Shown here: one piece after another, positions 7,710 through 62,611 of the stretch
Numbering within the stretch: position 1 is the first letter of the stretch
How the letters are laid out: each line of letters opens with the position of its first letter
NCBI GenBank assembly: GCA_965246875.1
Contig: CBDFFU010000003.1
Span: 199,385-263,384, forward strand
Length of the DNA: 64,000 nt
Reading direction: 5' to 3'
Origin: Alphaproteobacteria bacterium
GTDB taxonomy: Bacteria > Pseudomonadota > Alphaproteobacteria > Micavibrionales > SZUA-601
Notes under the pieces: model-generated
Seen by the model: only the letters and a program-made list of their open reading frames with translations
Databases searched by the model: none
What the model was told of the DNA's origin: nothing
Program-made: the position numbers and the translations under genes

Positions 7710-8408
7710 ATGCGAGACTTACTTATGCCATCTCCGTTTCCATTTCCACTCATTAAAGGCAGTTTCGAAGCCCTGTTGGGCCATGACTGGCCGGAAAGTG
7801 CAGATAAAGGCTGGCTGCGCTCGCCACAAGCCAAGATTTCAGATCAGGAAAGAAATTTTGCTGCTCTTGCAAACCGATATTTTGGTTGCAATTTTTCCTA
7901 TGGTGAATCACCAACACTGGGCAAAACTCTTATCGTGAACCCTGCATCTTCACTTGCTGATCAAGCGTTTGCCGATGCCTATGGACAAGTTGCAGCCAAT
8001 CATCACTCTGCTGAAAAAGCCGCCAGCGGTTTGGCACTGCATGGGTACATGCAAAACCTGTATCACAATGCTGGTGTGCTGGATAAATGGGGCCATTGGT
8101 CACTGGGATGCAATACAGGTGGCTTCAATGTTTATAAGATGGATCCGCAATCACCAAACGAAAACACATTTTTACGCGCGGCGCAACGCATTATTCAAGC
8201 TTCTCACCGTGTGGGACAGTCCATGACAGCAGATATGAGGATTTATTCTGCTCAACCGACACAAGTTGCGCAACTCAAAATACATGACCGCCCGACAACG
8301 CCTGATGTTTTATCTGCGGTTCATGACAAATTAGTTGCGTCCTTGGAATTGTGCGCAAAGGCTGGTCCTCAGGATCAGGCAATTCTTCAAAGACGTCTTG
8401 GGCTTTAA
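7710..8408 (+). CDS. hypothetical protein
   Basis: 232-aa ORF with no signal peptide or motif recognised. Confidence 0.4.
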   Translation: MRDLLMPSPFPFPLIKGSFEALLGHDWPESADKGWLRSPQAKISDQERNFAALANRYFGCNFSYGESPTLGKTLIVNPASSLADQAFADAYGQVAANHHSAEKAASGLALHGYMQNLYHNAGVLDKWGHWSLGCNTGGFNVYKMDPQSPNENTFLRAAQRIIQASHRVGQSMTADMRIYSAQPTQVAQLKIHDRPTTPDVLSAVHDKLVASLELCAKAGPQDQAILQRRLGL

Positions 8409-8458
8409 AGAAAAACCGCCATCACTGACGGCTTTTTATTCTATGGCCTTAACACAAT

Positions 8459-11377
8459 TTATTTCCCCAACGCTTCATCCACCAATTTCGCCTGCTCCAC
8501 CGTATGACGTTTCAGCGAACCGGTGGCCGGTGATGCAGCGTCCGGGCGGCCAATATAGCGTGGGCGTTTGGTCGTATGTTTCATATCGACCAGCACGGCC
8601 TCGATGCGGCGGTCCATGAAACTCCACGCGCCCTGATTGTGCGGCTCTTCCTGGCACCAGACGATGTCGGCGTTGGGGTATTTTGCCAGTTCGCGTTTCA
8701 GCGCATCAGCCGGGAACGGATACATTTGCTCGACGCGCACCAGCGCAATGTCCTTGATGGTGCGCTCGTCGCGCGCCTGCAACAGATCGTAATAGACCTT
8801 GCCGGTCGTCAACACGACACGTTTGACTTTCTTGCCGTCCGCCAGATCTTTCGTCGCATCCTTGATCACGCGGCGGAAGGTTTTTTCCGGTGTAAACTCT
8901 ATCAAATCCGACACACAAAGCTTGTGTCGCAACAAGGATTTCGGCGTCATGATCACCAGCGGCTTGCGAAAATCACGCTGCATCTGACGGCGCAGGATGT
9001 GAAAATAGTTGGCGGGCGTCGTGCAATTCGCCACCTGGATATTATCTTCGGCACAGGCCTGTAGAAAACGTTCCAGACGGGCAGAGGAATGCTCCGGCCC
9101 CTGGCCCTCAAACCCATGTGGCAACAGCAACGTCAAACCCGACATGCGCAGCCATTTCGTTTCAGCCGATGTAATGAACTGATCGATCATAATCTGCGCG
9201 CCGTTGACGAAGTCGCCGAACTGCGCCTCCCACAGCACCAGCGATTTCGGATCGGCCAGAGAATAGCCGTATTCAAACCCCATCACCGCATATTCCGACA
9301 ATGGGCTTTCATAAATTTCGAACATCCCCTGATTGTCTTTGATATGTTGCAGCGGAATGTGACGCGCATTGGTGTTTTGGTCATACACCACATCATGCCG
9401 TTGCGAGAACGTGCCGCGGCCAACATCCTGCCCCGTCAAACGCACATCGAACCCGTCATTGAGCAATGTCCCAAACGCCAGGGCTTCGGCAGTCGACCAG
9501 TCGATGCCATGACCCTCATGCACCGCCTGTTGTTTGGCTTCAAACTGACGCGCGATTTTGCTGTTCACGGCAAAGTCGGCTGGTGTTTTGGTCATCGCCA
9601 GCGTGACCGCTTTCAGCACGTCTTTGGCCACGCCGGTGTCACCACGGCGTTCGATGCCGCTGGCCAAGGATAAGCCGCGCCAGGCGCCATCCAGCATGTC
9701 GGCTTTGGTCGGTTTGTAGGTTATAGCCTCGGTAAAGGCCGCTTCCAGATTGGTCTCAAACGTGGCTTTCATCTGTGCCAAGTCTGATGCTGGCAATGCG
9801 TTGCGTTGTGTCAGGCTGTCCGTATACACCGTCAACGTTGTCGCCTTGTCACGGATCGCCTGATACATCACCGGTTGCGTGAACGCCGGCTCATCGCTTT
9901 CATTATGGCCGTGACGGCGGTAACAGACGATATCCAAAACGATGTCTGCGCCGAACTGCAACCGGTAATCAATCGCCAATCGGCTGGCATAAGCGACCGC
10001 TTCCGGGTCATCGCCATTCACATGAATGATGGGGGCCTGGATGCCTTTGGCGATATCAGTTGGGTACGACGTAAAGCGGCCATACTCCGGTGTTGTGGTA
10101 AACCCAATTTGGTTGTTGATCACAATGTTGATCGATCCGCCCGTGGTGTAACCCTGCAAGCCCGAGAGAAGCAACGTTTCGCCCACCACGCCTTGGCCCG
10201 GAAATGCGGCGTCGCCGTGAATGATGATGGCCATCACGGTCTTGCGCTCGATGTCTTTTTTCTGCGCCTGTTTCGCGCGCACACGACCCACCACGACCGG
10301 GTTGACGGCCTCCAGATGGGACGGGTTTGGTGACAGGGACACATGCACATTGACGCCACCCAGATCGCGATCTGCCGATGCACCCATGTGATATTTTACA
10401 TCGCCTGACCCTTGCACGGAATCTGGCGTCGCTGGTGTCCCCTGAAATTCACTGAACAATGCCGTAAATGATTTCTGCAGCACGTTGGTCAAGACATTCA
10501 AACGGCCACGGTGTGCCATGCCGAACGCGACTTCGGTAATGCCTTTTTTCGCACCGTAACGCAAAGCCTCTTCAATCGCACAGATCGTGCTTTCGCCCCC
10601 CTCCAGACCAAACCGTTTGGTGGTGGTGTATTTTTTCTGGAGGAACAATTCCAAACCTTCAGCGCGCACCAGGTCATTGTACAGATTGCGCTGGTCATCA
10701 GCGGTCAATTGGCTTTGGTGCGGTTCGTCTTCGATATGACGCTTGAACCAGTGACGCTGCGCCGGGTCTTGCACATGCATATATTCAAACCCGATCGTGC
10801 CGCAATACAGCGTTTTCAAACGCGTCAGCACATCGTTGATTGTCGCGGTCGTAAAACCCAATTGGTTGACTGCAATTGGCCGATCCAAATCCTGTTGCGT
10901 AAAACCATAGGTTTGGGGTGATAGATCCGGATGTTCTTTCGGCTGCCACAACCCCAGCGGATCAAGTGATGACAATAAATGTCCGCGCATGCGATAGGCT
11001 TCAATCAACATGCTCAACCGTGACGCATCAGCTACAGCCGCATTCAGTTTTTCAAGTGATACACCGCCAGATGGTGCCGGTGATGCTGTTTTATCGGCAG
11101 CAGGCTTGTCGCTTTTGTTATCACCCTTGGCAACATGAGCCGCCGGTGTTGGCAGGATTGTTGGATCGTCGGTATTAGCGGGTTGATTGGGTGCCCAGGA
11201 GGCACCATGCAGTTCAGCCATCAAGGTGTTGGCATCGTCACCAAGCGATTCAAAAAATTGTGCCCAGCTGGCATCCACCGCATTGCGATTAGCGCGATAT
11301 TGCGCGTAAAGATCGGTCAGATACGCGCTGGACATACCGGTGGGTAACAAAGCGAGAGCGTTTTGTGCAGACGACAT
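8459..11377 (-). CDS. sucA: 2-oxoglutarate dehydrogenase E1 component
   Basis: 972 aa with collinear SucA blocks throughout (N-terminal YLTDLYAQY, TPP-binding region HGDAAFPGQGVV, C-terminal transketolase-like part). Confidence 0.95.
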   Translation of the reverse strand: MSSAQNALALLPTGMSSAYLTDLYAQYRANRNAVDASWAQFFESLGDDANTLMAELHGASWAPNQPANTDDPTILPTPAAHVAKGDNKSDKPAADKTASPAPSGGVSLEKLNAAVADASRLSMLIEAYRMRGHLLSSLDPLGLWQPKEHPDLSPQTYGFTQQDLDRPIAVNQLGFTTATINDVLTRLKTLYCGTIGFEYMHVQDPAQRHWFKRHIEDEPHQSQLTADDQRNLYNDLVRAEGLELFLQKKYTTTKRFGLEGGESTICAIEEALRYGAKKGITEVAFGMAHRGRLNVLTNVLQKSFTALFSEFQGTPATPDSVQGSGDVKYHMGASADRDLGGVNVHVSLSPNPSHLEAVNPVVVGRVRAKQAQKKDIERKTVMAIIIHGDAAFPGQGVVGETLLLSGLQGYTTGGSINIVINNQIGFTTTPEYGRFTSYPTDIAKGIQAPIIHVNGDDPEAVAYASRLAIDYRLQFGADIVLDIVCYRRHGHNESDEPAFTQPVMYQAIRDKATTLTVYTDSLTQRNALPASDLAQMKATFETNLEAAFTEAITYKPTKADMLDGAWRGLSLASGIERRGDTGVAKDVLKAVTLAMTKTPADFAVNSKIARQFEAKQQAVHEGHGIDWSTAEALAFGTLLNDGFDVRLTGQDVGRGTFSQRHDVVYDQNTNARHIPLQHIKDNQGMFEIYESPLSEYAVMGFEYGYSLADPKSLVLWEAQFGDFVNGAQIMIDQFITSAETKWLRMSGLTLLLPHGFEGQGPEHSSARLERFLQACAEDNIQVANCTTPANYFHILRRQMQRDFRKPLVIMTPKSLLRHKLCVSDLIEFTPEKTFRRVIKDATKDLADGKKVKRVVLTTGKVYYDLLQARDERTIKDIALVRVEQMYPFPADALKRELAKYPNADIVWCQEEPHNQGAWSFMDRRIEAVLVDMKHTTKRPRYIGRPDAASPATGSLKRHTVEQAKLVDEALGK

Positions 11378-12667: not shown

Positions 12668-15007
12668 TTACACAGTCTCTTTCACTTTCTTCACCCGCGG
12701 CTTACGCATCTTTGGTAGTGGTGCTTTCATCAGTGGCTGAATGTTAAACACCAGTTTTTTCTCTGCTAATGCAATCTGCACCTCGCCACCATCAACCAAC
12801 TGTCCGAAGAGGATTTCATCCGTCAGTGGTTTTTTGATTTCGTTATCAATGACGCGGCCCAGTGGACGCGCACCCATGGCGCGGTCATAGCCTTTTTGCG
12901 CCAGATAGGTGCGGGCCTCTGATGTCAATGAGAAGGTTACACCCTTATCCGCCAATTGCTGTTCCAGGCGATATATAAATTTATCCACAACCTGCCCGAC
13001 AATTTCGGGCGATAAATGACCGAACGGCACAACCGCGTCCAGACGGTTGCGAAACTCTGGTGTAAAGGTGCGTTTGATCGCTTCGTTATCGTCGTCCATG
13101 TTCGTTTGCGGGCCAAAACCGATCGTCGGGCGTTCCAGTTCTGCGGCGCCCGCATTCGTCGTCATGATGATGATCGTGTGGCGGAAATCGACGGACTTGC
13201 CATTGCTGTCCGTCACCTTACCGTAATCCATCATCTGCAGCAAAATATTGAACAGATCGGGGTGCGCTTTTTCAATTTCATCGAGTAACAACACCGCGTG
13301 CGGCGTCTGATCAACCGCATCCGTCAACAACCCGCCCTGGTCAAAGCCCACATAACCCGGAGGCGCGCCAATCAGACGCGACACGGAATGCCGCTCCATA
13401 TATTCCGACATGTCAAAACGGATGAGTTTGATGCCCAGCAATTGCGCCAATTGTTTCGCGACTTCGGTTTTGCCGACACCGGTTGGCCCGGCAAAGAGAT
13501 ATGACCCGATCGGCTTGTCGTGATCGCGCAAGCCGGCGCGGGACATTTTGATCGCGGTCGCTATCGACTCGATGGCACGCTCCTGGCCAAACACCAGACG
13601 CTGCAGATCACCCTGCAAACCTTTGAGAATAGTCTTGTCGTCTTGGGAGACGGAACTGGCCGGAATACGCGCAATTTTGGCCACGACGACTTCGATATCA
13701 TTGACGGTGATCTGATTATGCCGCTGGTCGTCCGGCAGCAACCGTTGCGCCGCACCCGCCTCGTCCAGCACATCCAGCGCCTTGTCCGGCAATTTGCGGT
13801 CGGTAATATAGCGCATTGACAAATTGACGGCCGCTTTCAACGCGTCATCGTCGTAGGTCAGACCGTGATATTGCTCATAGTAGCTTTTCAAACCCGATAA
13901 AATGCGGATCGTTTCATCCACCGATGGTTCATTGACGTCAATCTTCTGGAACCGGCGCACCAGCGCGCGGTCTTTTTCAAAATGATTGCGATACTCTTTG
14001 TACGTCGTCGACCCCAGACAGCGGATCTTGCCGCGTGACAAAGCTGGTTTCAGCAAATTCGAGGCATCCATCGCCCCGCCCGACGTCGCGCCAGCCCCAA
14101 CGATGGTGTGAATTTCATCGATAAACAGCACGGAATGCGGCAAAGCTTCCAATTCGTTGATGACGGCTTTCAACCGCTCTTCAAAATCACCGCGATAACG
14201 CGTGCCGGCCAGCAATGACCCCATATCCAGCGCGTAAATCACGGCGTCTTTTAGCACCGCTGGCACATCGCCATCAACGATCCGCTTGGCTAAGCCTTCG
14301 GCAATCGCCGTTTTGCCCACGCCTGGTTCACCGACATAGAGCGGATTGTTTTTGGAACGGCGGCACAAAATCTGGATCGTGCGCTCCACCTCATCGGCGC
14401 GGCCGATCAAAGTATCAATCTCGCCCTTGATGGCTTTTGCATTTAAATCGACGCAGAAACTTTTTAAGGCATCGTTGGTTTTGGCTTTTGTGTCCTCTTC
14501 CGGCTCTTCGCGGTTTGGTTCTTTGGCCGTCTTATCGCCGGCACCCGTCACCGGATTGTCGGCGTTGTGCGCCGGATTTTTCGCAATGCCGTGCGACATG
14601 AAATTGACCGCGTCAAACCGCGTCATGTCTTGTTCCTGCAAGAAATACACCGCATGGCTTTCGCGTTCCGAGAACATGGCAACCAATAAATTCGCGCCCG
14701 TCACTTCGGTCCGGCCCGAACTCTGCACATGAATGGCCGCACGCTGGATGACACGCTGGAAACTGGAGGTCGGTTTGGCTTCTTCATGACCAGACCCCAT
14801 CAACCCGCTTAATTCATGATCAACAAACTCACTGACCTCGCGGCGCAATTCGTCGATCGCCACGCCACAGGCGCGCAGTACGGGCATGGCATCCGCATCT
14901 TCCAGCAACGCCAGCAGCAAATGCTCCAGTGTCGCAAATTCATGGCTGCGCACATTGGCAAAATGCAGGGCGCGATGGAGGGTCTGTTCGAGTTGATGTG
15001 ATAACAT
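12668..15007 (-). CDS. clpA: ATP-dependent Clp protease ATP-binding subunit ClpA
   Basis: 779 aa with an N-domain and two AAA+ modules (GEPGVGKT and GPTGVGKT Walker A motifs). Confidence 0.95.
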
Positions 15008-15009
15008 TA

Positions 15010-15274
15010 GGGCATGTCTCCGGTTAAATTACAGGCATGGCGCGAGATAATCTTATTGCTGGCTATGAAGGGCGCACAGAGCATAGCAGAGCTATGCGCC
15101 AGCGTTCTGAAGACGCCAGAGATAAGATTATCCGCGTCCTGCGGATGATCAAAAGAAGGCCGGTCTGGTGCGTCAAAACCTTTACCCATAGCGCCGCTAT
15201 GGCTTGCAGGCTTTTCCTGCCATTCCGGCCTTCTTTTGATCACCATGCTCTGCAATTTAACCGGAGACATGCCC
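15010..15274. mobile_element. 265-bp MITE-like palindromic element with 21-bp perfect terminal inverted repeats and TTA duplication
   Basis: GGGCATGTCTCCGGTTAAATT at 15010-15030 is the exact reverse complement of 15254-15274. TTA flanks both ends (15007-9 and 15275-7). Internal nested inverted repeats are present (15148-15164 with 15226-15242, 15046-15056 with 15121-15131). Confidence 0.7.
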
Positions 15275-15751
15275 TTAATTCTCTCTTTCCATCGTGCATT
15301 GCAACGGATGTTCATGGCCACGCGCCAACAACATCACCTGATCAACCTTGGTTTCCGCAATTTCATAGGTATAGACACCCGCCGTGCCGATGCCTTTTTG
15401 ATGCACCGCCAGCATGATGTCCGTGGCCTCGGCACGTGATTTGTTGAACACCCGCTCCAGCACATAGGTCACAAATTCCATCGGCGTAAAATCGTCGTTC
15501 AACAACAGCACCCGGTACATCGGCGGCTTTTTGGTTTTTGGCCGCACCTTCAGCGCTAAATCGTCGGCAAAGGCATCATTGTTATCGACTCTGGTCGGGC
15601 CGCTGCCACGGTGGCCGCCAGTCGGACTTTTTGGCCGTGCGGCGTTCAGGGGGTATGACGGTTTCGTTGCCAGGGTTCCCTTGATATCGTTCGCCACGCC
15701 CAAATATCCAGAGGGGCGCAAAAAAGACAAATCGGAGCAAGGCAATCTCAT
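15275..15751 (-). CDS. clpS: ATP-dependent Clp protease adaptor ClpS (true start probably internal)
   Basis: The C-terminal 90 aa are canonical ClpS ([46 protein letters not shown]). The N-terminal extension is unconserved, and an in-frame GTG at codon 19 is an alternative start. Confidence 0.9.
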
Positions 15752-15933
15752 CCCTTTAGTCTGCCTGAACAGCCTGAACAGAGGGTTAAGGCATTGATTT
15801 TGAATAGGACATAATTCTGGGGATGTTTTGTCGGCTTATTTACACGAAAAGCCTAAGTATAATCCATTTGTAACATTTATCGGATCTATACTACTCTGCA
15901 TAAACAGTAATAACAAACCTGACAGGAAACTAC

Positions 15934-16287
15934 ATGTTAAACATGCTTAGGATTGCTTTAAGTTTAAAAGGCAGAATAGATCGTAAAACATACATTCGAA
16001 ATTTTATTTTATTTTTTTGCTTTTGCGGCTGTATCTACTTTATCCCTATTTGTGAAAATCAAAGATTTGTCAGCAATGTCGATTATATTTTTTGCCAATC
16101 TTATGATCTCGTTAGTATTTTGATTATTGTTATTAATTTATGGTGGTTTACAGTTACTCATGTCAAACGCTGTCATGATCTTAATCGACCTTGGAAATAT
16201 TTACTAAGTTTAAAATCAAACATTACTCTATTCACAGAACCGGGTACTAATAGTGCCAATTTTTATGGTCCACCACCGAAAAAATAA
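15934..16287 (+). CDS. DUF805-type inner-membrane protein
   Basis: Shows KGRIDRKTY, VKRCHDLNRPWKY and a C-terminal NFYGPPP pattern. The gene is AT-rich. Its stop abuts the convergent prfB stop (TAATTA). Confidence 0.65.
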   Translation: MLNMLRIALSLKGRIDRKTYIRNFILFFCFCGCIYFIPICENQRFVSNVDYIFCQSYDLVSILIIVINLWWFTVTHVKRCHDLNRPWKYLLSLKSNITLFTEPGTNSANFYGPPPKK

Positions 16288-17398
16288 TTACTCCCCGCCC
16301 GTCATCATACTCTTCCGCAGCATCGCGCTGATAAACATATTCAGATCCCCATTCAGCACGTCCTGGGTTTGGCTGGTTTCGACGTTGGTGCGGAGGTCTT
16401 TCACCATCTGGTATGGGTGCAGCACGTACGAGCGGATCTGGTGGCCCCAGCCGATTTCGGTTTTCAAGCCTTGGGCCGCGTCTTTGGTGGCTTGCTGTTT
16501 CTGGCGTTCCAGTTCGTACAATTTCGCTTTTAACATCTGCATTGCCTGGTCTCGGTTTTGGTGTTGCGACCGTTCCGATTGACAGGTGACCACTGTTCCC
16601 GTCGGCATATGTGTAATGCGTACAGCGGAATCCGTCGTGTTAACGTGTTGACCACCCGCACCCGATGCGCGATAGGTGTCGATTTTTAAATCCTTGTCCA
16701 GCACTTCAATTTCGATACTGTCATCAATCACCGGCGATACCGCGATGGAGGCAAAACTGGTATGGCGCTTGGCATTGCTGTCGAACGGCGATATGCGCAC
16801 CAACCGATGCACGCCGCTTTCGACTTTCAGCCAGCCGAACGCGTTGCGCCCTTTGACCAACACGGTGGCCGATTTGATGCCTGCCCCTTCACCGTCCAGA
16901 ATCGATTGAATTTGTGTTTTATATTGGTTCTGATCACACCAGCGGAGGTACATGCGAAACAGCATGTCGGCCCAGTCCTGCGCCTCGGTGCCACCAGCCC
17001 CGGCATTGATCTCGATATAGGCGTCGTTGCCATCAACTTCGCCGGATAATAACGTCTGCAACTCGGCCTGTTCGGCGGTTTTGGCCAGATCGCGCAAGGC
17101 ATCTTCGGCCTCGGCGACGATCGACGACTCGTTTTCCGCCTCGCCCATTTCGATCAGGCCCAAATTATCGGTCAGCTTATTCTCTAAATCCGAAATCGCG
17201 GCCATGCGCTGTTGCAAATCATTACGCTCCCGCATCATAATCTGCGCGCGCGCCGCGTCGTTCCACAAATTCGGGTCTTCGGACAGATTATCCAGCTCCG
17301 CTAGACGGTCGACCGATTTATCCCAGTCAAAGATGCCCCCTTAGCAGACCGATGGTCTGCCGGACATTAGCAATCAGGTTTTGGATTTGGGGATTCAT
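16288..17398 (-). CDS. prfB: peptide chain release factor 2, expressed through a programmed +1 frameshift
   Basis: The main ORF 16288..17268 is RF2 (SPF and GGQ motifs). The upstream frame starts at the ATG at 17396-17398 ([23 protein letters not shown]) and ends at an in-frame TGA inside CTTTGAC. Confidence 0.9.
17326..17332 (-). promoter_or_regulatory. prfB +1 recoding site CTT TGA C with upstream SD-like AGGGGG
   Basis: The minus strand reads AGGGGGCATCTTTGAC. This is the classical RF2 autoregulatory frameshift cassette. Confidence 0.9.
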
Positions 17399-17465: not shown

Positions 17466-17813
17466 TTAATCAAACAGATGGAAGCGATACATCAAACCCA
17501 GCGATAAGATCGCGAAACTCAGAATTTGCAACGCAGCTGTTTTGGCTCGGCTGGCTCGGCCAGCAGTCCTGTCGGCCAAAAGCGCGCATTTGACGATACC
17601 GCCCGTCAACCCGGAGAAGGTCACCAGATTCAGAAACATAAAACCAACATCAGTGAGGCGGCACACATCAAACTCGCAGGCGGCGATGTGCCACAGACCC
17701 ATACATAAAAGGGCCATACATATAAAAAAGGCTTTTCCCGACACATACTGTATGACCGCATAAGGCAGCAGACCCAGGGCGAGACACACCGAAAATGCAA
17801 TGATTAAATCCAT
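17466..17813 (-). CDS. small polytopic membrane protein (paralogue A)
   Basis: 115 aa with about 4 hydrophobic spans and the same architecture as 17907..18251. Confidence 0.4.
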   Translation of the reverse strand: MDLIIAFSVCLALGLLPYAVIQYVSGKAFFICMALLCMGLWHIAACEFDVCRLTDVGFMFLNLVTFSGLTGGIVKCALLADRTAGRASRAKTAALQILSFAILSLGLMYRFHLFD

Positions 17814-17906: not shown

Positions 17907-18251
17907 TCAAGGGTGATAAATTTTGATGCACCAATATAAAATCATACATAAACAAGCCAAAACTTGAATAATCGCGCGTTTCGTCAAGTTGATCGGCGTT
18001 TTACGACCATACGTCATCAATATCAGTTTGACGATGACACCGCTGAAACACGCAATCGTCAGACAATGGACCAGCATCAAGCCAATATTTGTTTCATAAC
18101 TGTGACGCTGCATATCAAACAACATGAGATTTGCGAACGACATCAAAGATGCCGCAAAAGCGATTAAAAACACCCTGCCCGCCAACATCTGAATCAGCAG
18201 AAATGGGATCAAATGAATGACCGCCATGACGACACAAACAAACAAAATCAT
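17907..18251 (-). CDS. small polytopic membrane protein (paralogue B)
   Basis: 114 aa with about 4 hydrophobic spans. It forms a tandem pair with 17466..17813. Confidence 0.4.
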   Translation of the reverse strand: MILFVCVVMAVIHLIPFLLIQMLAGRVFLIAFAASLMSFANLMLFDMQRHSYETNIGLMLVHCLTIACFSGVIVKLILMTYGRKTPINLTKRAIIQVLACLCMILYWCIKIYHP

Positions 18252-35235: not shown

Positions 35236-36247
35236 TATGGTCCGTATACGATGAGTTTGCCGACACAACATTGGAAATCGTTCCACTCGCCGCAACAACC
35301 GGTGTAAGGACGCGACATGTTGAAGAGCTGGCTGAAATTCTAGCCGCCGATGGATTTTATTACGCAGATGCCAAACCATCCAATCAAGGAACGTTTAAAA
35401 GACGACAAGTGGTTCTCGACCCCGGCGCGGTCATTCAGATGTGCCTTTAAAATAAAAATCTTCAACAAATATGGCTATAAATAATCTGGTTGATAAAATA
35501 GATTAAAGGCCAATATCAGGTAACATGATTGTTCATCCCACCGCGACAGGCTGGAGCATTATTCACCAGCAGGCACATGGCCTTCTAGCGTTTCAGCTAG
35601 CGTTGCACTGGAACCACGATAAACGCCCGGCCAACTGGCCCGAAACGCTGGCCGCTCTGTTGGAGCATGATGACGGGCAAGATCCCTTTACCAAACACAA
35701 TCATATATCAAAAGCCGGCGCGCCACTGCAATTTGTACCCTATTCTATCACTCAGTGTCATCGCATGATTGACATTGCCTTGTATAAGAGTCGCTGGAAT
35801 GCCCTTATGGTTTCACGTCATGCGACGTTTCTGTATAAATCGAGACGAGGAGAAAATAAAGACCTTGACAGTTTTCTGGATAAACAGAAAGAAAATCAAA
35901 AGAAATGGCTCAAAGAAGGTAGTTTTCGCTTGAAAGATGTCGACTACGCTTATGCTTTTCTACAATGGTGTGATGCACTCTCGCTTGTACTCTGCCGTGA
36001 AGAGATTCCACCAGAGGAACGTCAGCTTGAGGTCAGCAAAGGTCCGGACGGAATTCATTACTTCATCCACCAACGCCGCAATGACGAGTCTTTAACTATT
36101 GACCCTTGGCCGTTTGCAACGACCCACTTCGATGTTTACACCGAGACCTACAATTTACAGAAATTGAAGTTCAAAGATGATCACGAACTCAAGAAACTAA
36201 TTTCTACTACGGCACCTACCCAAAAAAAATGGGTTTTTAAGAAATAA
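35236..36247 (+). repeat. about 1-kb direct repeat, copy 1 (partner 61598..62611)
   Basis: Aligned by eye at an offset of 26,364 nt. 35712-36009 is identical to 62076-62373. The flanks show scattered substitutions and small indels. Confidence 0.85.
35525..36247 (+). CDS. conserved hypothetical protein, possibly DUF3891-like (copy 1)
   Basis: 240 aa. The N-terminal GWSIIHQQAHGLLAFQLALHW pattern resembles what I recall of DUF3891 (unverified). It differs from 61889..62611 at 11 of 240 residues. Confidence 0.5.
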   Translation: MIVHPTATGWSIIHQQAHGLLAFQLALHWNHDKRPANWPETLAALLEHDDGQDPFTKHNHISKAGAPLQFVPYSITQCHRMIDIALYKSRWNALMVSRHATFLYKSRRGENKDLDSFLDKQKENQKKWLKEGSFRLKDVDYAYAFLQWCDALSLVLCREEIPPEERQLEVSKGPDGIHYFIHQRRNDESLTIDPWPFATTHFDVYTETYNLQKLKFKDDHELKKLISTTAPTQKKWVFKK

Positions 36248-36409
36248 GCAACCCACCCTTCAAAGCAAAAAATTAATAAACCAGGTTTCTGCATTAAGAA
36301 ATTATGCGCTTCCTCGCAAGCGGGATAGAAGAGATCACAACTGGTCATCATTCCGTTGCAATAAAAATATATTTGAGCCACAATATTATGATTTATGTAT
36401 CCGTCGTCG

Positions 36410-38821
36410 TCATTGTTTCAAAAATTCATACTCGTAAACTTTCAGAGCTATTTTATCGGCAAGCATGCGTAGTGTTTGTCGCAAGTTGCTCATTAACTGC
36501 GTATATTTTTCGTCTGTGCTTTTTGCGTTCATTCGTCCCATATCGTTGCGACCTTGAAAGTATGATTTGATATCATACAAAGCTGCATTTGCGTTAATTA
36601 ATTTTTGTGAATGATAATATTTCCAAAGTTCACGGCCTGCATTAAATACGTTTGTTGCTTCACGTGAAAATTGTAACGCTTTGCCGTTATTTATTTCATT
36701 ACCAAACAAGTTGCCAAAATTTTCAGTCTTCAATTTACCTTTTATGAAGTCGGTCATAAAGTTACTTTCAAACTTTTCTTTGGCGTTTATTTCACTTTCG
36801 ATAAAAGGTATCCAATGATTGACTCCAAATTTCGTTTGGATGTTGTTATTGAATATCGTAAAAGCCAAACAGTCATTTTGAAATTCTTTGTCTAATTTCC
36901 AATTATCGTTTGGACATAAAAATTGATCACGGTCGTTTAGCCAGTTGGCTTCAATTGCCTTACGAACAGAGAAGTACATTGAAACAGGAATCAAGTTGTC
37001 CTTGTTAATCCAAATGCCACGGGGATTAGGTAGTTGTTCTTTTGTGTTTAAAACGTAAACGATATTGTTGTGTTGAAAATCGTTGCCATTTATGCCGTCC
37101 ATAAAGCCAATGTTATCTTCTCTGGTGGCTTTATAAATTGAAATGAATTTGTTGATGTATTGGCTTTTATTTAGTGCGTAAATGCCCTTTATTCCAAGGA
37201 AATTGGCGTTTTTATCGTAAATGTCTGCAATTACACTTGTAAACAATTCTTTGTTGTTTGTATTCCAAATTTTAAAGCCAATTGGAAACTGCCCTTTCAC
37301 GTTATCAAATGTATCTGCTGGTGCTAAAAAGATTTTCTCAAGTTTCGCTTTAAAATGTTCTTTGAGGCTGAGAAAAGCGGAACCTTGCAGAATTTTCAAA
37401 GTTGAAAATTCTGCAAGAATTACACCATTAAATTCTGAGTAAATTCTGATTAGGAATTGAGCAAATAATTCTCTTCCGGCTGTTCCTAATTTTGAACCGT
37501 ATTTAGCATGTATCTTGGTTTGGTTTACTCCAACCTTTCCTTTTTCTGCTTTACTCGATACTTCGGCATAAGGTGGATTAATGTAAATAATTAGCTTTTT
37601 ACGCTTCTCATGGTCATTCAGTATTTCTTGCAAACCTTGTGGAAGTTTTGAAAAATCATCATTCAAAAAATCAAATTGAAAAACGTGTCTCTCCAAAAGA
37701 TTAGCACCGTAATTGATACGGTCGTGCATCACTTTAACGTCTGCTTGGTCTAAGGTGCTCGCCCAAATATTATATTTGTTGCTTAAACCTGCAAGTAGAT
37801 TGCCGGTGCCTGCGGCACAGTCCCAAATGTAGTATTCATCTTGCCAGTTCTCGCCTAAATAATCGGTTAAGTATTTTTGAGAAAGTTCAACCCATTGTCT
37901 TGGCGTAAAAAAAGCTCCTTTTCGTTCTCTGATGTCTTGCGGAACAAGCAAGTCCCTACGTTCAATGATGTAGTTTTGAAACTCCTTAATTGGCGGTCTC
38001 TTATATCGTTTCCAAAACTGCTGATAGGCTTCTTTATTGCGAATACTGATTGTTGCATCAAACATTTGTCTGATGTTCTCTTTCGCTATTTTGTAACCTT
38101 GATTTTGAAAAATTACAAACAGATTATCTCTTATTGATGCGTCATCTTCTATCCCGCTTGTGTCTCGGTCATCAACAAACAAGTCAGCTAAATAAAAATC
38201 GCTGTCTAAAATATTTGCTTTTTTAAGGTCGTCCCAACCCACGTCAATAATGGGTTTTACAATTTCAAGCCAACGCAAATAAATCGGTATGAAATTGTTC
38301 TTATCAATTTTAATTTTGCCGGTCTCTGTTGCTTTGGCAATGTTATTGGTAATAAAATGTTTTAGCTCTTTTTCATCCTGTATGTAGTCATATACATAAC
38401 TGTTTTTGCTCAGATTGGCTTCAATTCTTTCTTTAATGAGTTTGAATTCTTTTGTGTCGTGATTACTTGGCGTTACGTTCCAATTAAAGTCATTAAGATA
38501 GAAAATATCCTGTATGCTAATATAGGGAACGAAAGCAATTTTTTTAAAATCAAATGCTCCCAAAAAGGCTGGGGACAAAGTTTTATCAAAAGTTCGTGCT
38601 TTACCGATTGTCAAAATAAGTTGCACAAACATTGTCGAAATGTCAAAGTCGCCTGTTTTGGCTTCTGCCCAAAGCAAAGGTGTCCTTCCAAAAAGGTTGT
38701 CTTGCTTTGGAAAAACGGTGAAGTCAATATTGCCGATTATTTCTGTCGTATCGAATGATCTGAACCAGTCCACACCAACCTTGTTTTTCAGTTCCTCTTC
38801 TCTGATGTTTTTATATTTCAT
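36410..38821 (-). CDS. single-polypeptide type IIG-like restriction-modification enzyme candidate (N6-adenine methyltransferase core)
   Basis: Contains the SAM motif WDCAAGTGNLL and the catalytic NPPY (IYINPPYAE). The N-terminus has a possible PD-(D/E)xK arrangement (D41...E53-A-K55, LLWAEAK). A long C-terminal region could act as a target-recognition domain. The gene is very AT-rich. Confidence 0.65.
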   Translation of the reverse strand: MKYKNIREEELKNKVGVDWFRSFDTTEIIGNIDFTVFPKQDNLFGRTPLLWAEAKTGDFDISTMFVQLILTIGKARTFDKTLSPAFLGAFDFKKIAFVPYISIQDIFYLNDFNWNVTPSNHDTKEFKLIKERIEANLSKNSYVYDYIQDEKELKHFITNNIAKATETGKIKIDKNNFIPIYLRWLEIVKPIIDVGWDDLKKANILDSDFYLADLFVDDRDTSGIEDDASIRDNLFVIFQNQGYKIAKENIRQMFDATISIRNKEAYQQFWKRYKRPPIKEFQNYIIERRDLLVPQDIRERKGAFFTPRQWVELSQKYLTDYLGENWQDEYYIWDCAAGTGNLLAGLSNKYNIWASTLDQADVKVMHDRINYGANLLERHVFQFDFLNDDFSKLPQGLQEILNDHEKRKKLIIYINPPYAEVSSKAEKGKVGVNQTKIHAKYGSKLGTAGRELFAQFLIRIYSEFNGVILAEFSTLKILQGSAFLSLKEHFKAKLEKIFLAPADTFDNVKGQFPIGFKIWNTNNKELFTSVIADIYDKNANFLGIKGIYALNKSQYINKFISIYKATREDNIGFMDGINGNDFQHNNIVYVLNTKEQLPNPRGIWINKDNLIPVSMYFSVRKAIEANWLNDRDQFLCPNDNWKLDKEFQNDCLAFTIFNNNIQTKFGVNHWIPFIESEINAKEKFESNFMTDFIKGKLKTENFGNLFGNEINNGKALQFSREATNVFNAGRELWKYYHSQKLINANAALYDIKSYFQGRNDMGRMNAKSTDEKYTQLMSNLRQTLRMLADKIALKVYEYEFLKQ

Positions 38822-39130
38822 TTGTCGTCTATCTTCGTCTGTTACAATGCTGTTTTACAATTGGTATTAACGTCTTTGTAAATTTAAAAATCATGTAAAA
38901 TCACAAGAACGTAAAAAAGCGTTTTTGTGGTTTTCCAGACAGGATTTAAAAGATTTTTTCATGGATTTCTATTACTCGTTGATGTGTTAAAGCGTCTAAC
39001 TTGATCTGGTTACTTCCGTTTAGAAAAGTTCAACGGCATCCTCATGAGTGTGGTTTGAAGCAGATTTGTAAAAATCGCGCTGTGTGCGGCATATTTAGCA
39101 GTATTCTCTCAATCTGCGCTTGCTGCAGAC

Positions 39131-39335
39131 TAAATGCCGGTGGATGCAGTCTATCGCGAACTTCTCTCAGGCACAATTCACTGTGTTTCAAGGAATATAC
39201 AGGGAATCTGGGCTATAAAAAGCATTATTTTTCGTTGAGACCCCATTCATATCATTGAAATGAAACAATTTATTTCTTGTAAACAACAGGGAAATTTTAA
39301 ATACTATGAGGGAACATAACGCCACAAACAGGCAG
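39131..39335 (+). repeat. about 200-nt repeated intergenic module with ACAGGGAA-type motifs, copy A
   Basis: The core 39131-39210 matches 54336-54415 at 68 of 80 positions (hand count). The downstream part is collinear but more diverged. Confidence 0.7.
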
Positions 39336-39604
39336 TTTTCTTCAGCAATCTAATAAGCACTCTGATCTGTCCTAAGGGTATCGATCAGATAAACCTCAAG
39401 CTTCAGGTGTTGTACAAATTGATTTGAAATTCGGCCAACCACCTAATTTCTGACGCCGTAAAATGATAACGTTTTGTATTGATATGCCAGTGTCCATTTA
39501 GCCCTAAATCATCCTAGAAAACGAAGACATACCTATTAACAAATTAATTATTGCGTTGATTATGTTATTATGATACCCTATATTGATTTAATTGTGGAGT
39601 AGCC

Positions 39605-40723
39605 ATGACAGACACATCTAAGCTGAAAGTGGCAGACTTGAAAAAACTGCGTGAAGAGCGGAACGATCAGCGCTTGATTGAACTGGGCGAAGCTTGGCTT
39701 GAGCAAAATCCGCTGACGTCCGATCTGTTGTCCCGCAAAGAGCCAAATGCGATTTTGTCTGAGATTGGCAAGGCAATGCACAGAACCGGCGATAAGAAAC
39801 GTGGTTATGATGTACTTTATAATGCGCTTGCGGTGGTTCCCAACGCCATTCTGCATTCGGCCCTTAGCCATTTGAACAAGGCTGACATAAATTATCCGCA
39901 GGCGCTAAGTCATGCGGAGGCGGCTTTGCCATTCGAGCCAGATAACGTTCACAGCATCCGAAATTTGGCAGATATCCATAAGCGAATGGGGAATTTTGGC
40001 GAAGCAAAATCATATTATCAGCTGTCTTTGCATAAAAGCCGTGGATCGCGTGACATCGAGACCGCGACCAACGGCCTGGCGCAGATTCATCTGGTGCAAG
40101 GCGATCATCAAAAGGCTAGGGAATATTACAGCCTTCATGCCGACAGAAACATCGTTTCATTATGCGGATTAGCCAATACATGCCTTATCGATGGCGAACT
40201 GGATGAAGCTGAAAAACTTTATAAACAACCTTTGGCAAACGGCAGCCGGGTTGCCAAACGCGGATTGGCGATGTGTTACATCGCGCAGGGCAAGCTGGAC
40301 GACGCACAAAAGCTCTTGGCTGGCGTCGATAAAAACGATACACAAATTCAAGATTATTACCTTGATGCTGCACTGGCGATGAAACAGGGCGATTTCAAAA
40401 CGGCGCGTGAGGATATTTTGTCTGCTATACAAGAATTCCCTGTTACGAAAACCACTTTTCCCTATGTACGGACGTTTGCCGAAGCTGGTCTTATCGACCC
40501 TCCTATGTATGAAGTTCTAGCCGAAATGATGGGTTATAAAACCATCAATCCGATCCAGCCCAAACCGCTCGACCAAGTTTTAAATGATTTCAAATCACAC
40601 CTGGTCCTGATAACCGCTCAAGATGAAGAGCCAACGGCCCCCATTTCCGCGATTTATACTGGTAATTTCGAGACGCCGGTCAACAAACAGACGCAGCGCG
40701 TGACCCAGCAGCGGAGAAAGTGA
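39605..40723 (+). CDS. TPR-repeat protein
   Basis: 372 aa with repeated about 34-aa units showing the A/G/Y spacing typical of TPR (e.g. GNFGEAKSYYQLSL, GDHQKAREYYSL, GELDEAEKLYKQPL, GKLDDAQKLL). Confidence 0.6.
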   Translation: MTDTSKLKVADLKKLREERNDQRLIELGEAWLEQNPLTSDLLSRKEPNAILSEIGKAMHRTGDKKRGYDVLYNALAVVPNAILHSALSHLNKADINYPQALSHAEAALPFEPDNVHSIRNLADIHKRMGNFGEAKSYYQLSLHKSRGSRDIETATNGLAQIHLVQGDHQKAREYYSLHADRNIVSLCGLANTCLIDGELDEAEKLYKQPLANGSRVAKRGLAMCYIAQGKLDDAQKLLAGVDKNDTQIQDYYLDAALAMKQGDFKTAREDILSAIQEFPVTKTTFPYVRTFAEAGLIDPPMYEVLAEMMGYKTINPIQPKPLDQVLNDFKSHLVLITAQDEEPTAPISAIYTGNFETPVNKQTQRVTQQRRK

Positions 40724-52881: not shown

Positions 52882-53412
52882 TCACTGCTTTGCGATGCAC
52901 GAAATAGATGGCGGCACGCCGCCCATCCACATGCCCTTGCGCTTGGATGCCGCCAGCTTGTCACGGATGCGTTCCCCGGTGACTTCGCGCTCAAATTGGG
53001 CGAAGGACAGCAGCACGTTCAGTACTAACCGTCCCATCGATGTTGTCGTATTGAATTGCTGCGTGACTGAGACGAATGACACGTTGTACTTTTCGAACAC
53101 CTCGATCACTTTTGAGAAATCAAGCAGCGAGCGCGTCAGGCGGTCGATCTTATAAACAACGACGACATCGATGCGGCCTGCCTCGATATCGGCCATCAGG
53201 CGTTTCAGTGCCGGGCGTTCGATATTGCCGCCGGAGAAGCCGCCATCGTCATAGCGGTCCGGCACCAGCAGCCAGCCTTCATGGCGCTGGGCGGCAATAT
53301 AGGCCTCACCGGCTTCGCGTTGTGCATCCAGCGAGTTGAATTCCTGTTCCAGGCCTTCCTCGTGCGATTTACGCGTGTAGACCGCGCAACGGGTTTTTGT
53401 TTTTGTAATCAT
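52882..53412 (-). pseudogene. serine recombinase, truncated after the catalytic domain
   Basis: Resolvase-type catalytic domain (CAVYTRKS..., [19 protein letters not shown]). The ORF stops 8 codons after [10 protein letters not shown], where large serine recombinases continue into the recombinase and zinc-ribbon domains. No HTH is present either. Confidence 0.75.
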
Positions 53413-53867
53413 GTCCTGCCTCCCGTCTGGCGTTTCAGCCCAAAGAATAGAGGTCCTGACCATTGGGTACCGGTAATGGCGCGGGCGATGGAAGACAGGC
53501 TCTTGTAACGCTTGCCGCGATAGTCGAAGCCGTAATGCAGCACGGTCACTTCGTGAGTTTCTCCGTTATGCTCGCGCATCAGACGGGTTCCGGCGACTGG
53601 CTTGTCAGGCGAGACAGCACTGGCCTTTTTGATGGACTTGCCCTGCAGGTCCATATGCTGGCGGGCGTAAGTCTCCAGTCGCCGTTCCAGCGTTTTGCCG
53701 TCAGTGCCATAGGCCAGCTCCTGAATCCGGTAAGCCAGCCGCTTGACAAAATAAGGTTTGTTAAACGGCGGCGGTTCGGTTGCATGCAGTTCTTGCCACA
53801 GTTTCTTCAATTGGGGCGCAGTCATGCCCGGCAGCGCGGCGATGCGGGCAGTAATATTATTGCTCAT
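53409..53867 (-). CDS. DUF2924-like protein, translationally coupled to the recombinase
   Basis: 152 aa with patterns I associate with DUF2924 ([53 protein letters not shown]). Its stop overlaps the recombinase ATG as ATGA at 53409-53412. Confidence 0.65.
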
Positions 53868-61597: not shown

Positions 61598-62611
61598 ACA
61601 AGAAGTTATACAATGATTTTGCCAACACAACGTTAGAAATCGTTCCACTCGCCGTAACAACCGGTGTGAGAAAACGACGTGTTGAGGAACTGGCTAGAAT
61701 TCTTGCAGCCGATGGATTCTATTATTCAGGTGCCAAACCGTCCAATCAAGGCATGTTTAAAGGACAACAAGTGGTTCTGGGACCCCGGCGCGATCATTTA
61801 CCTATTCACATAAAATAAAATCTTGTCATCAAGCATGGCTATAAATAATCTGGTTGATAAAATAGATTAAAAGCTGATATTAGGTAACATGATTGTTCAT
61901 CCCACCCCTACAGGCTGGAGCATTATTCACCAGCAAGCACATGGCCTTCTAGCGTTTCAGCTAGCGTTGCACTGGAAACATGAAAAACGTCCGACTAACT
62001 GGTCCGAAACGCTAGCTGCTCTGTTGGAGCATGATGATGGGCAAGATCCCTTTACCAAACACAATCATATATCAGAAGCCGGCGCGCCACTGCAATTTGT
62101 ACCCTATTCTATCACTCAGTGTCATCGCATGATTGACATTGCCTTGTATAAGAGTCGCTGGAATGCCCTTATGGTTTCACGTCATGCGACGTTTCTGTAT
62201 AAATCGAGACGAGGAGAAAATAAAGACCTTGACAGTTTTCTGGATAAACAGAAAGAAAATCAAAAGAAATGGCTCAAAGAAGGTAGTTTTCGCTTGAAAG
62301 ATGTCGACTACGCTTATGCTTTTCTACAATGGTGTGATGCACTCTCGCTTGTACTCTGCCGTGAAGAGATTCCGCCAGAGGAACGCCAGCTTGAGGTCAG
62401 CAAAGGTCCGGACGGAATTCATTACTTCATCCATCAACGCCGCAGCGACCAATCTTTAACTATTGACCCTTGGCCGTTTTCAACGACCCACTTCGATGTT
62501 TACACCGAGACCTACAACTTACAGAAATTGAAGTTTAAAGATGATCACGAACTTAAAACTCTAATTTCTGCCACGGCGCCGACACAAAAAAAATGGGTTT
62601 TCAAGAAGTAA
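61598..62611 (+). repeat. about 1-kb direct repeat, copy 2
   Basis: See copy 1. Confidence 0.85.
61889..62611 (+). CDS. conserved hypothetical protein, possibly DUF3891-like (copy 2)
   Basis: 240 aa, matching 35525..36247 at 229 of 240 residues. Confidence 0.5.
   Translation: MIVHPTPTGWSIIHQQAHGLLAFQLALHWKHEKRPTNWSETLAALLEHDDGQDPFTKHNHISEAGAPLQFVPYSITQCHRMIDIALYKSRWNALMVSRHATFLYKSRRGENKDLDSFLDKQKENQKKWLKEGSFRLKDVDYAYAFLQWCDALSLVLCREEIPPEERQLEVSKGPDGIHYFIHQRRSDQSLTIDPWPFSTTHFDVYTETYNLQKLKFKDDHELKTLISATAPTQKKWVFKK

Follow-up and report, generated by a model that had tools for sequence, protein, structure and literature searches.

In the 64-kb stretch of alphaproteobacterial DNA analysed here (hereafter the window), the genes clpS and clpA are separated by a 265-nt element (15010-15274, minus strand) whose sense strand is the clpS-clpA mRNA strand and whose termini read GGGCAT...ATGCCC. 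The upstream gene, clpS (15275-15751, minus strand), is intact, encodes a complete Pfam ClpS domain and ends in the same C-terminus (...CTMEREN*) as in relatives. The downstream gene, clpA (12668-15007, minus strand; ATG at 15007-15005), is also intact and encodes 779 residues that align full length to relatives, including a conserved N-terminus. A sequence-only reading of this DNA had proposed a 265-bp element with perfect 21-bp terminal inverted repeats, placed exactly at the clpS stop and clpA start and leaving both genes whole, and our coordinates agree with it throughout. The repeat GGGCATGTCTCCGGTTAAATT is present without mismatch at 15010-15030 on the plus strand and at 15254-15274 on the minus strand; allowing up to three mismatches gave no further match in the window, and two matches were reached in 0 of 100 shuffles. 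Beyond the 21 perfect base pairs the repeat extends over 26 nt at 96% and over approximately 32 nt if one mismatch and one indel are allowed. TTA stands at both flanks (15007-15009 and 15275-15277). Read on the coding strand, the clpS stop codon TAA (15277-15275, minus strand) doubles as the 5' flanking copy of a TA(A) duplication, and the final A of the 3' flanking copy (15007-15009, minus strand) is base 1 of the clpA ATG.

The mRNA strand of the element is predicted to fold with a free energy of -160.9 kcal/mol, against -85 ± 5.5 kcal/mol for dinucleotide shuffles (z = -13.8). The fold is not the nested-hairpin palindrome suggested at first sight. It is a four-way junction, made up of a closing helix of about 32 bp formed by the terminal repeats (P1), two long independent hairpins and a mini-hairpin. 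The 5' arm of P1 (15243-15274, minus strand) is one of the terminal inverted repeats, begins right after the clpS stop and holds an ATG (15270-15268); the 3' arm (15010-15041, minus strand) is the other and ends 2 nt before the clpA ATG. A GGAG lies in this 3' arm, 10 nt upstream of the clpA ATG, and in the modelled fold the arm sequesters the clpA ribosome-binding region. Hairpin B, the first on the mRNA (15146-15242, minus strand), has 23-nt arms with 51 nt between them and the conserved internal loops AUGGCAGGAAAAG / UUUGACGCACCAGA. The mini-hairpin at the junction (15130-15146, minus strand; UCCGCAGGACGCGGA) is weakly terminator-like. Hairpin A, the second on the mRNA (15046-15132, minus strand), has 18-nt arms, again with 51 nt between them, and the conserved internal loop GCGUCUUCAGAA / CCUUCAUAGC. 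In this hairpin (columns 162-215 of alignment A3) CUUCA stands unpaired on each strand of the loop, with two-fold symmetry; judged by its sequence, this motif could be a candidate binding site for a dimer. No sigma-70-like promoter was seen in or near the element, and the sole terminator-like hairpin is weak. Rfam 15 gave no match at E ≤ 1 within 14000-16500 and none at gathering score across the whole window.

The ATG in the 5' arm of P1 lies 4 nt after the clpS stop and opens a frame of 87 codons, which closes on the 3' flanking TAA (15009-15007) and overlaps the clpA ATG as TAATG. We refer to this as the relay frame (15007-15270, minus strand). The two open reading frames (ORFs) called through the element had been taken for mirror images of one another; the mirroring is limited to the seven residues that the terminal repeat encodes.

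Comparison with relatives indicates that the junction was once compact. ClpA homologues were fetched at 89, 85, 82, 74 and 73% identity (five loci, L001-L005). On each of the five contigs clpS immediately precedes clpA, and in L001-L003, the closest three, DJ-1, prfB and sucA are retained as neighbours as well. The clpS-clpA spacers in the five relatives measure 1, -1, 3, 2 and 0 nt, against 267 nt in the window. Since the spacers of the relatives run only from -1 to +3 nt, the long spacer is the derived state, an insertion. In silico excision of the element together with one TTA yields GAGAATTAATGTTATCA, a TAATG overlap of the kind that the sequence-only reading had predicted for the ancestral junction, and the junction of L003 indeed reads GAAAACTAATGCT, with the same TAATG. 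Empty sites were thus found in 5/5 relatives, one of them in exactly the predicted form. Because L004 carries TAATAATG at its clpS-clpA junction, the TAA..TAA flanks could in principle predate the insertion. On these alignments we regard the 265-bp sequence as an insertion of a mobile-type element.

Copies related to it are present at unrelated loci of other genomes, as expected of a mobile element and not of a locus-specific spacer. An exhaustive phmmer search with the 87-residue translation of the relay frame matched P0121, which is the protein itself as called on this frame in the annotation of the source genome, and three proteins of 77-79 residues aligned to the very C-terminus. A profile search from the family translations gave ten protein clusters. 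DNA copies were taken from the loci of the clustered proteins, together with one DNA-only copy (L012b) that is not called as an ORF, was found only with a DNA profile (nhmmer) and was confirmed by the covariance model R1; the evidence on the family rests on the resulting seven DNA copies. The window copy (15010-15274, clpS | clpA) matches the family profile over its full length (E = 3e-72) and scores 277.7 bits with R1. The other six lie on other contigs, alphaproteobacterial in appearance: 1 nt before the eno ATG in L006 (1225-1489); 2 nt before the ATG of a shlB-like gene in L007 (3404-3668; the same as L008 and L009); between the nrdR stop and the ribE ATG in L010 (167-430; the same as L011); between the atpD stop and the atpC ATG in L012a (9967-10231); at the atpG stop and 17 nt before the atpD ATG in L012b (8233-8497); and after the rpsU terminator, facing a convergent gene, in L013 (1898-2163). 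The two L012 copies, 70% identical, are housed in a single ATP-synthase operon of a 110-kb metagenome contig, at atpG|atpD and atpD|atpC.

The copies are 264-266 nt long and their alignment is practically gap-free, at a pairwise identity of only 54-76%. Their termini share the consensus GGGTCT...AGACCC; the rest of the terminal repeat varies between copies and is complementary within each copy, with perfect repeats of 21-24 bp in three copies besides that of the window. BLASTN of the element, the repeat and the family consensus against plasmids and phages gave nothing beyond chance-level similarity (for the element and its repeat, no plasmid match at all); it was the sense-strand translation that led to the family. 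An 18-mer of the repeat and the hairpin-B arms had no match in viral contigs, nor did the conserved core (CGTCTTCAGRAAGCTTG...), which was scanned in viral contigs only. A word-indexed search with X-joined six-frame peptides missed the 87-residue ORF although it is present in the database, and negatives of that kind are unreliable. From these comparisons the family appears to be rare and undescribed; its copies come from a group of uncultured alphaproteobacteria.

Two further observations concern the copies themselves. The full copies of L006 and L013 each have a solo end fragment immediately next to them, TTAGGCCC|TA (L006, 1216-1224) and TCTAGACCCTAG (L013, 2169-2180); the sequence of these fragments suggests remnants of a second element, or repeated insertion at palindromic AGACCC-TA-GGGTCT-like junctions. 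At the protein level, P0124, P0128 and P0129 (ENA metagenome contigs) are identical in the N-terminal half, which corresponds to the hairpin B region, and different in the C-terminal half, a pattern that suggests mosaic or recombinant element copies.

RNAalifold returned the same four-way junction for all copies. The 102 consensus pairs of the seven-sequence alignment are 94.4% paired, compared with 77.3 ± 0.9% after partner shuffling and 38-45% when the partners are displaced by 1-3 columns. Compensatory double changes affect 60 of the 102 pairs (30 ± 3.3 in shuffles, 14-20 when slid), and the covariation score of 0.58, against 0.21 in shuffles, was reached by 0/500 of them. Family helix 1, which is P1, contributes 32 pairs, 94% paired, 23 of them with compensatory double changes. 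Helices 2-4 (hairpin B) are 98-100% paired and show double changes in 17 of 34 pairs; the mini-hairpin corresponds to family helix 5 and hairpin A to helices 6-8. Conservation extends to unpaired blocks, namely AUGGCAGGAAAAG, UUUGACGCACCAGAU and the facing loops GCGUCUUCAGAA / CCUUCAUAGC.

What maintains this pairing is a separate matter. Watson-Crick pairs make up 90.5% of cells, G-U accounts for 27 cells vs 17 for A-C, and both strands of the element fold about equally well. Because G-U and A-C are nearly balanced and the strands fold alike, selection in the mRNA, selection in single-stranded or cruciform DNA during movement, and partial upkeep by arm-to-arm correction are all compatible with the fold. 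Quasipalindrome correction is an established mutational mechanism, and the same three observations are what would be expected of a neutral DNA palindrome without host function, in which complementarity of the arms is kept mechanically, either by such template switching or by a transposition intermediate that copies one arm. We consider this improbable. It leaves unexplained the conserved unpaired loops (GUCUUCAG, CCUUCAUAG, AUGGCAGGAAAAG), the indel-free fixed length, and the orientation bias, stop-free frame and start-codon position described below.

An explanation by RNA structure alone deserves somewhat more weight, and yet we think it unlikely. The closing helix and hairpins would serve as substrates of RNase III (or another RNase), separating the cistrons and freeing the clpA ribosome-binding site, or would protect or insulate the transcripts, and the open frame would be incidental. 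The helices are very long and near-perfect, and there are precedents: in Correia elements RNase III cuts at the terminal repeats, ERIC elements change how mRNA decays (PMC10969869), and compensatory changes are known from a repeat that is transcribed, bcr1 (PMC3184786). The lack of a clear preference for G-U over A-C counts against it, as do two properties of the reading frame to which we return below.

The flanks bear on how the element moves. The sequence-only reading had described a TTA direct duplication; TTA does stand on both sides, and the 3-bp length is ambiguous, a TA duplication being compatible as well. Read 5'/3', the flanks are TAA/TAA in the window and in L012a. In L006, L007, L010 and L013 the 3-bp flanks disagree, the pairs seen among these four being CTA/TAA, ATA/TAG, TTA/TAA and CTA/TAG, and in L012b the flanks are TTA(G)/CCT, with no TA on the 3' side. 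Set against the TA duplication of an IS630/Tc1-mariner-derived MITE at a TA target, TA is found directly at both ends of four of the seven copies; the window copy and L012a need the extra A, and the 3' TA is missing in L012b. The common denominator is consequently TA, lengthened to TAA in two copies. As the first base of the element is G, the upstream gene gets a TAG stop back when the insertion hits the TA of its stop codon, and such a regenerated TAG is observed for nrdR (L010) and atpG (L012b).

These flanks do not suit the TNA-type duplication of the IS5 family of insertion sequences (ISs) that had been hinted at: the 3-bp flanks are mismatched in the four other clear-ended copies and TA alone is common. 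An ordinary IS5-family (IS1031/IS427-type, TNA-duplicating) MITE (miniature inverted-repeat transposable element), that is a selfish, non-coding, decaying deletion derivative with a structured spacer as its sole effect, would account for the terminal inverted repeats, the TTA/TTA flanks in the window and the TAA/TAA flanks in L012a. In ISfinder the ISL2 and IS427 groups have 2-4-bp duplications and ends that start with GG or GA. The use of 3-nt sites by IS1031-group elements (PMC2516522) also speaks for such an origin. Besides the disagreeing flanks, however, the repeats beyond the terminal GGGTCT differ between copies and yet remain complementary, the length stays at 264-266 nt while identity is 54-76%, the internal hairpins covary, no IS5-type transposase is encoded nearby and the repeat has no match in plasmids. 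We therefore give this origin little credence. The broader description as MITE-like stands for the repeats, the small size, the absence of a transposase gene and the filled and empty sites; it fails for the many copies, decaying length and parent IS that it would imply.

No autonomous IS with matching repeats was found in genomes, metagenomes, plasmids, phages or viral contigs, the query being the unconserved repeat of the window copy. Hypothetical genes beside the L013 copy were looked at as transposase candidates and dropped, as they encode acidic proteins without matches. A REPIN/RAYT or IS200/IS605-type element was rejected: the ends are mutually complementary up to the termini, and no Y1/HUH gene was seen in the window. 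An integron attC site or gene cassette, a group I intron, a hairpin ribozyme, a retron non-coding RNA, Tn3-derived TIMEs (5-bp duplication, 38-bp repeats) and a long-read assembly artefact were likewise set aside as misfits to the ends, the flanks or the diverged family.

We then come to the reading frame. The element had been held to have no coding capacity; one mRNA-strand frame is in fact stop-free for 87 codons in the window copy and is kept open across copies that are 54-76% identical. For the two copies not found through ORF calls, zero stops in the family frame have p = 0.019 (window) and p = 0.0036 (L012b) in structure-preserving shuffles, and the other two sense frames contain 3-9 stops. 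All seven copies are oriented with an adjacent gene, a bias that would also be in keeping with RNA structure alone. In 4/7 copies a co-oriented gene upstream has its stop codon directly at the 5' end, and in six of the seven the stop of the family frame lies at -1, 0, +1, +1, +2 or +5 nt from the downstream ATG. It is here that an explanation by RNA structure alone falls short, as it accounts neither for stop avoidance in exactly one sense frame of the two unbiased copies nor for a frame stop within 5 nt of the downstream ATG in 6/7 copies.

Could the frame simply be a small protein gene (74-87 residues) that entered the clpS-clpA junction and other loci? Annotators have called the ORF in ten clusters, and 17 residues are invariant among four members. 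Against this, the ratio of nonsynonymous to synonymous polymorphism (pN/pS) is 0.77 in the family frame and 0.87-1.01 in the control frames, the variable sites are spread evenly over the three codon positions (43/49/50 of 77/77/76), amino-acid identity tracks the nucleotide conservation imposed by the helices, the 87-residue translation has no Pfam or NCBIfam match, the position of the start codon varies and L012b lacks an ATG. Because pN/pS is 0.77 and variability is flat over codon positions, we conclude that no protein is conserved, and a genuine small protein gene is in our view highly improbable. The substitution pattern suggests instead a frame that is kept translatable, not meaningful, probably such that ribosomes can pass through the element to the downstream gene.

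The explanation that we favour, and hold to be probable without being secure, is that the element belongs to a rare, non-autonomous, structure-constrained mobile family that is tolerated at operon junctions through a relay ORF preserving translational coupling. Insertion into the TA(A) of an ancestral clpS-TAATG-clpA overlap would have regenerated the clpS stop and left a TAATG context for clpA. In the closing helix, the nucleotides that immediately follow the clpS stop would be paired with a stretch reaching to 2 nt before the clpA ATG. As this helix would bury the clpA ribosome-binding region, including the GGAG, de novo initiation at clpA should be blocked and clpA would depend on the stop-free frame. 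A ribosome would terminate at the clpS TAA, re-initiate at the ATG 4 nt downstream, translate 87 codons while melting the four-way junction, terminate on the TAA of TAATG and re-initiate on clpA. The peptide would be irrelevant, with selection acting on translatability alone, and it is the relay ORF that would allow the element to persist at start codons and at operon junctions. Movement would presumably depend on a TA-targeting DDE transposase supplied in trans. RNA structure at a downstream ribosome-binding site can be opened by a ribosome translating the gene before it, and a relay of this kind is allowed by both accepted models of coupling, in which the upstream ribosome unfolds the RNA or ribosomes re-initiate. 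By analogy with Correia elements, RNase III cleavage of the long helices is a possible competing or additional route to clpA expression.

Several points weigh against this explanation. The relay is something that we infer from sequence. The duplication is no longer than 2-3 bp, and its stop/start context is rich in AT. Called ORFs led to five of the seven copies, and gene callers favour operon-like spacing; the open frames, and perhaps the adjacency to start codons, are thus partly a matter of ascertainment. L013 has no co-oriented start next to it, and stops occur close to its 3' end. In L012b the ATG is absent, with a TTG available instead, and the copy reaches to 17 nt before atpD, outside the Shine-Dalgarno sequence belonging to atpD. 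The structure may have been selected, or merely homogenised, in the DNA and not in the mRNA. A Pfam scan of 40 window ORFs yielded no transposase, and none was found beside the other copies. The window holds one element copy and the P0121 ORF occurs on one contig only, which suggests a low copy number, atypical for MITEs. Finally, an exact 21-mer scan for the repeat and a relaxed 12+12-nt paired-end scan gave zero matches in 185,579 representative genomes and in JGI metagenome contigs, a result due to the terminal-repeat sequence of the window copy not being conserved in the family.

A bolder version of the relay explanation goes further, and we advance it only tentatively, as possible but rather doubtful. 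The family would be the first of a distinct low-copy, structure-constrained class specialised for stop/start junctions: its closing helix would join the upstream stop to the downstream start, its GGG would regenerate the stop (TA+G), and its relay would be free of both sequence constraint and stops. The whole fold, including the CUUCA loops, and not the repeat sequence, would be what the mobilising enzyme or a host factor recognises.

Elsewhere in the window, several features were noted in passing. Upstream of clpS, prfB (release factor 2) has a classic programmed +1 frameshift site (17326-17342, minus strand; AGGGGG ... CTT TGA C) that joins a short upstream frame to a 326-residue ORF (16288-17268). 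Small hydrophobic ORFs, read from translations only, surround it (15934-16287, 17466-17813 and 17907-18251); the first occupies the position of a DUF805 gene in L001, and the other two resemble mutual paralogues, again judged by their translations only. At 52882-53867 (minus strand) a 193-residue ORF with a serine recombinase N-terminal domain overlaps a DUF2924 ORF; the two are probably what is left of a large serine recombinase, split or decayed, from an integrated element. In the Pfam scan for transposases only this fragment turned up, 38 kb from the clpS-clpA element. Adjoining it, a stretch of low GC content (46-52 kb, GC 0.35-0.40) holds a hybrid histidine kinase, a sigma-54 activator and flagellin. 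A second low-GC island (36000-40000, GC 0.37-0.38) contains an 803-residue ORF without Pfam match (36410-38821, minus strand) beside a TPR protein. Two full-length DUF3891 paralogues of 240 residues each lie 26 kb apart (35525-36247 and 61889-62611, both plus strand).

If the relay explanation is true, mobile DNA can colonise overlapping stop and start codons in essential operons (clpS-clpA, atpG-atpD-atpC, nrdR-ribE) by carrying its own translational relay. The family would then offer a natural test system for RNA unfolding vs ribosome re-initiation, with a helix complex of about -130 to -160 kcal/mol placed between coupled codons. Sixty covarying pairs in a 'repeat' are unusually clean and raise the question of whether RNA, single-stranded DNA or repair maintains the fold. 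The family also explains a set of orphan 'hypothetical proteins' of 74-87 residues in annotation.

The family belongs to none of the named ones. By anatomy it is MITE-like, but with a constraint on length, fold and loops that decaying MITEs do not have. With the MITEs found in operons or transcripts (Chunjie, Correia/NEMIS, ERIC, Nezha and RUP) it shares terminal inverted repeats, a short duplication (TA in several), the lack of a transposase, very stable folds, co-transcription with neighbours, and filled vs empty sites (PMC10969869, PMC3184786); Chunjie, too, sits inside an operon without breaking it (PMC10969869). Those elements, however, occur in tens to hundreds of similar copies per genome, with a conserved repeat sequence and variable, decaying lengths, whereas the copies described here are few, 54-76% identical and of fixed length, with covarying repeats and internal helices and no known parent IS. 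The bcr1 repeat of the Bacillus cereus group likewise forms a covarying cruciform (PMC3184786), but it occurs in Firmicutes, measures about 155 bp, has 5-bp duplications and is not reported to carry a coupled ORF or to sit at start codons. Rickettsia palindromic elements are alphaproteobacterial and palindromic, their reading frame stays open, and translated regions tolerate them (PMC10969869); at about 105-150 bp they sit in-frame inside genes and become part of the protein, unlike the present element, which is intergenic with its own start and stop. REP, BIME and REPIN (RAYT) sequences are intergenic hairpins, often in operons, and their pairing is preserved during within-genome evolution (PMC3116915). 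REPINs differ as abundant, RAYT-linked single hairpins of about 100 nt without the terminal-repeat and duplication anatomy, and none of these features is seen here.

The closest likeness in function is to the MIRUs (interspersed repetitive units of mycobacteria), for which alone a relay logic has been proposed so far. These are apparently mobile intergenic units within operons and are oriented with the genes, as are the copies described here. MIRUs are GC-rich units of about 40-100 bp, often tandem minisatellites of Mycobacterium, with a -4 nt coupling and only imperfect inverted repeats; the alphaproteobacterial element is a single 265-nt four-way-junction palindrome with terminal repeats of 21-32 bp, TA flanks and a spacing of -1 to +5 nt. 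The two have no sequence relationship, and the element is MIRU-like by its logic, as a functional class and not by homology.

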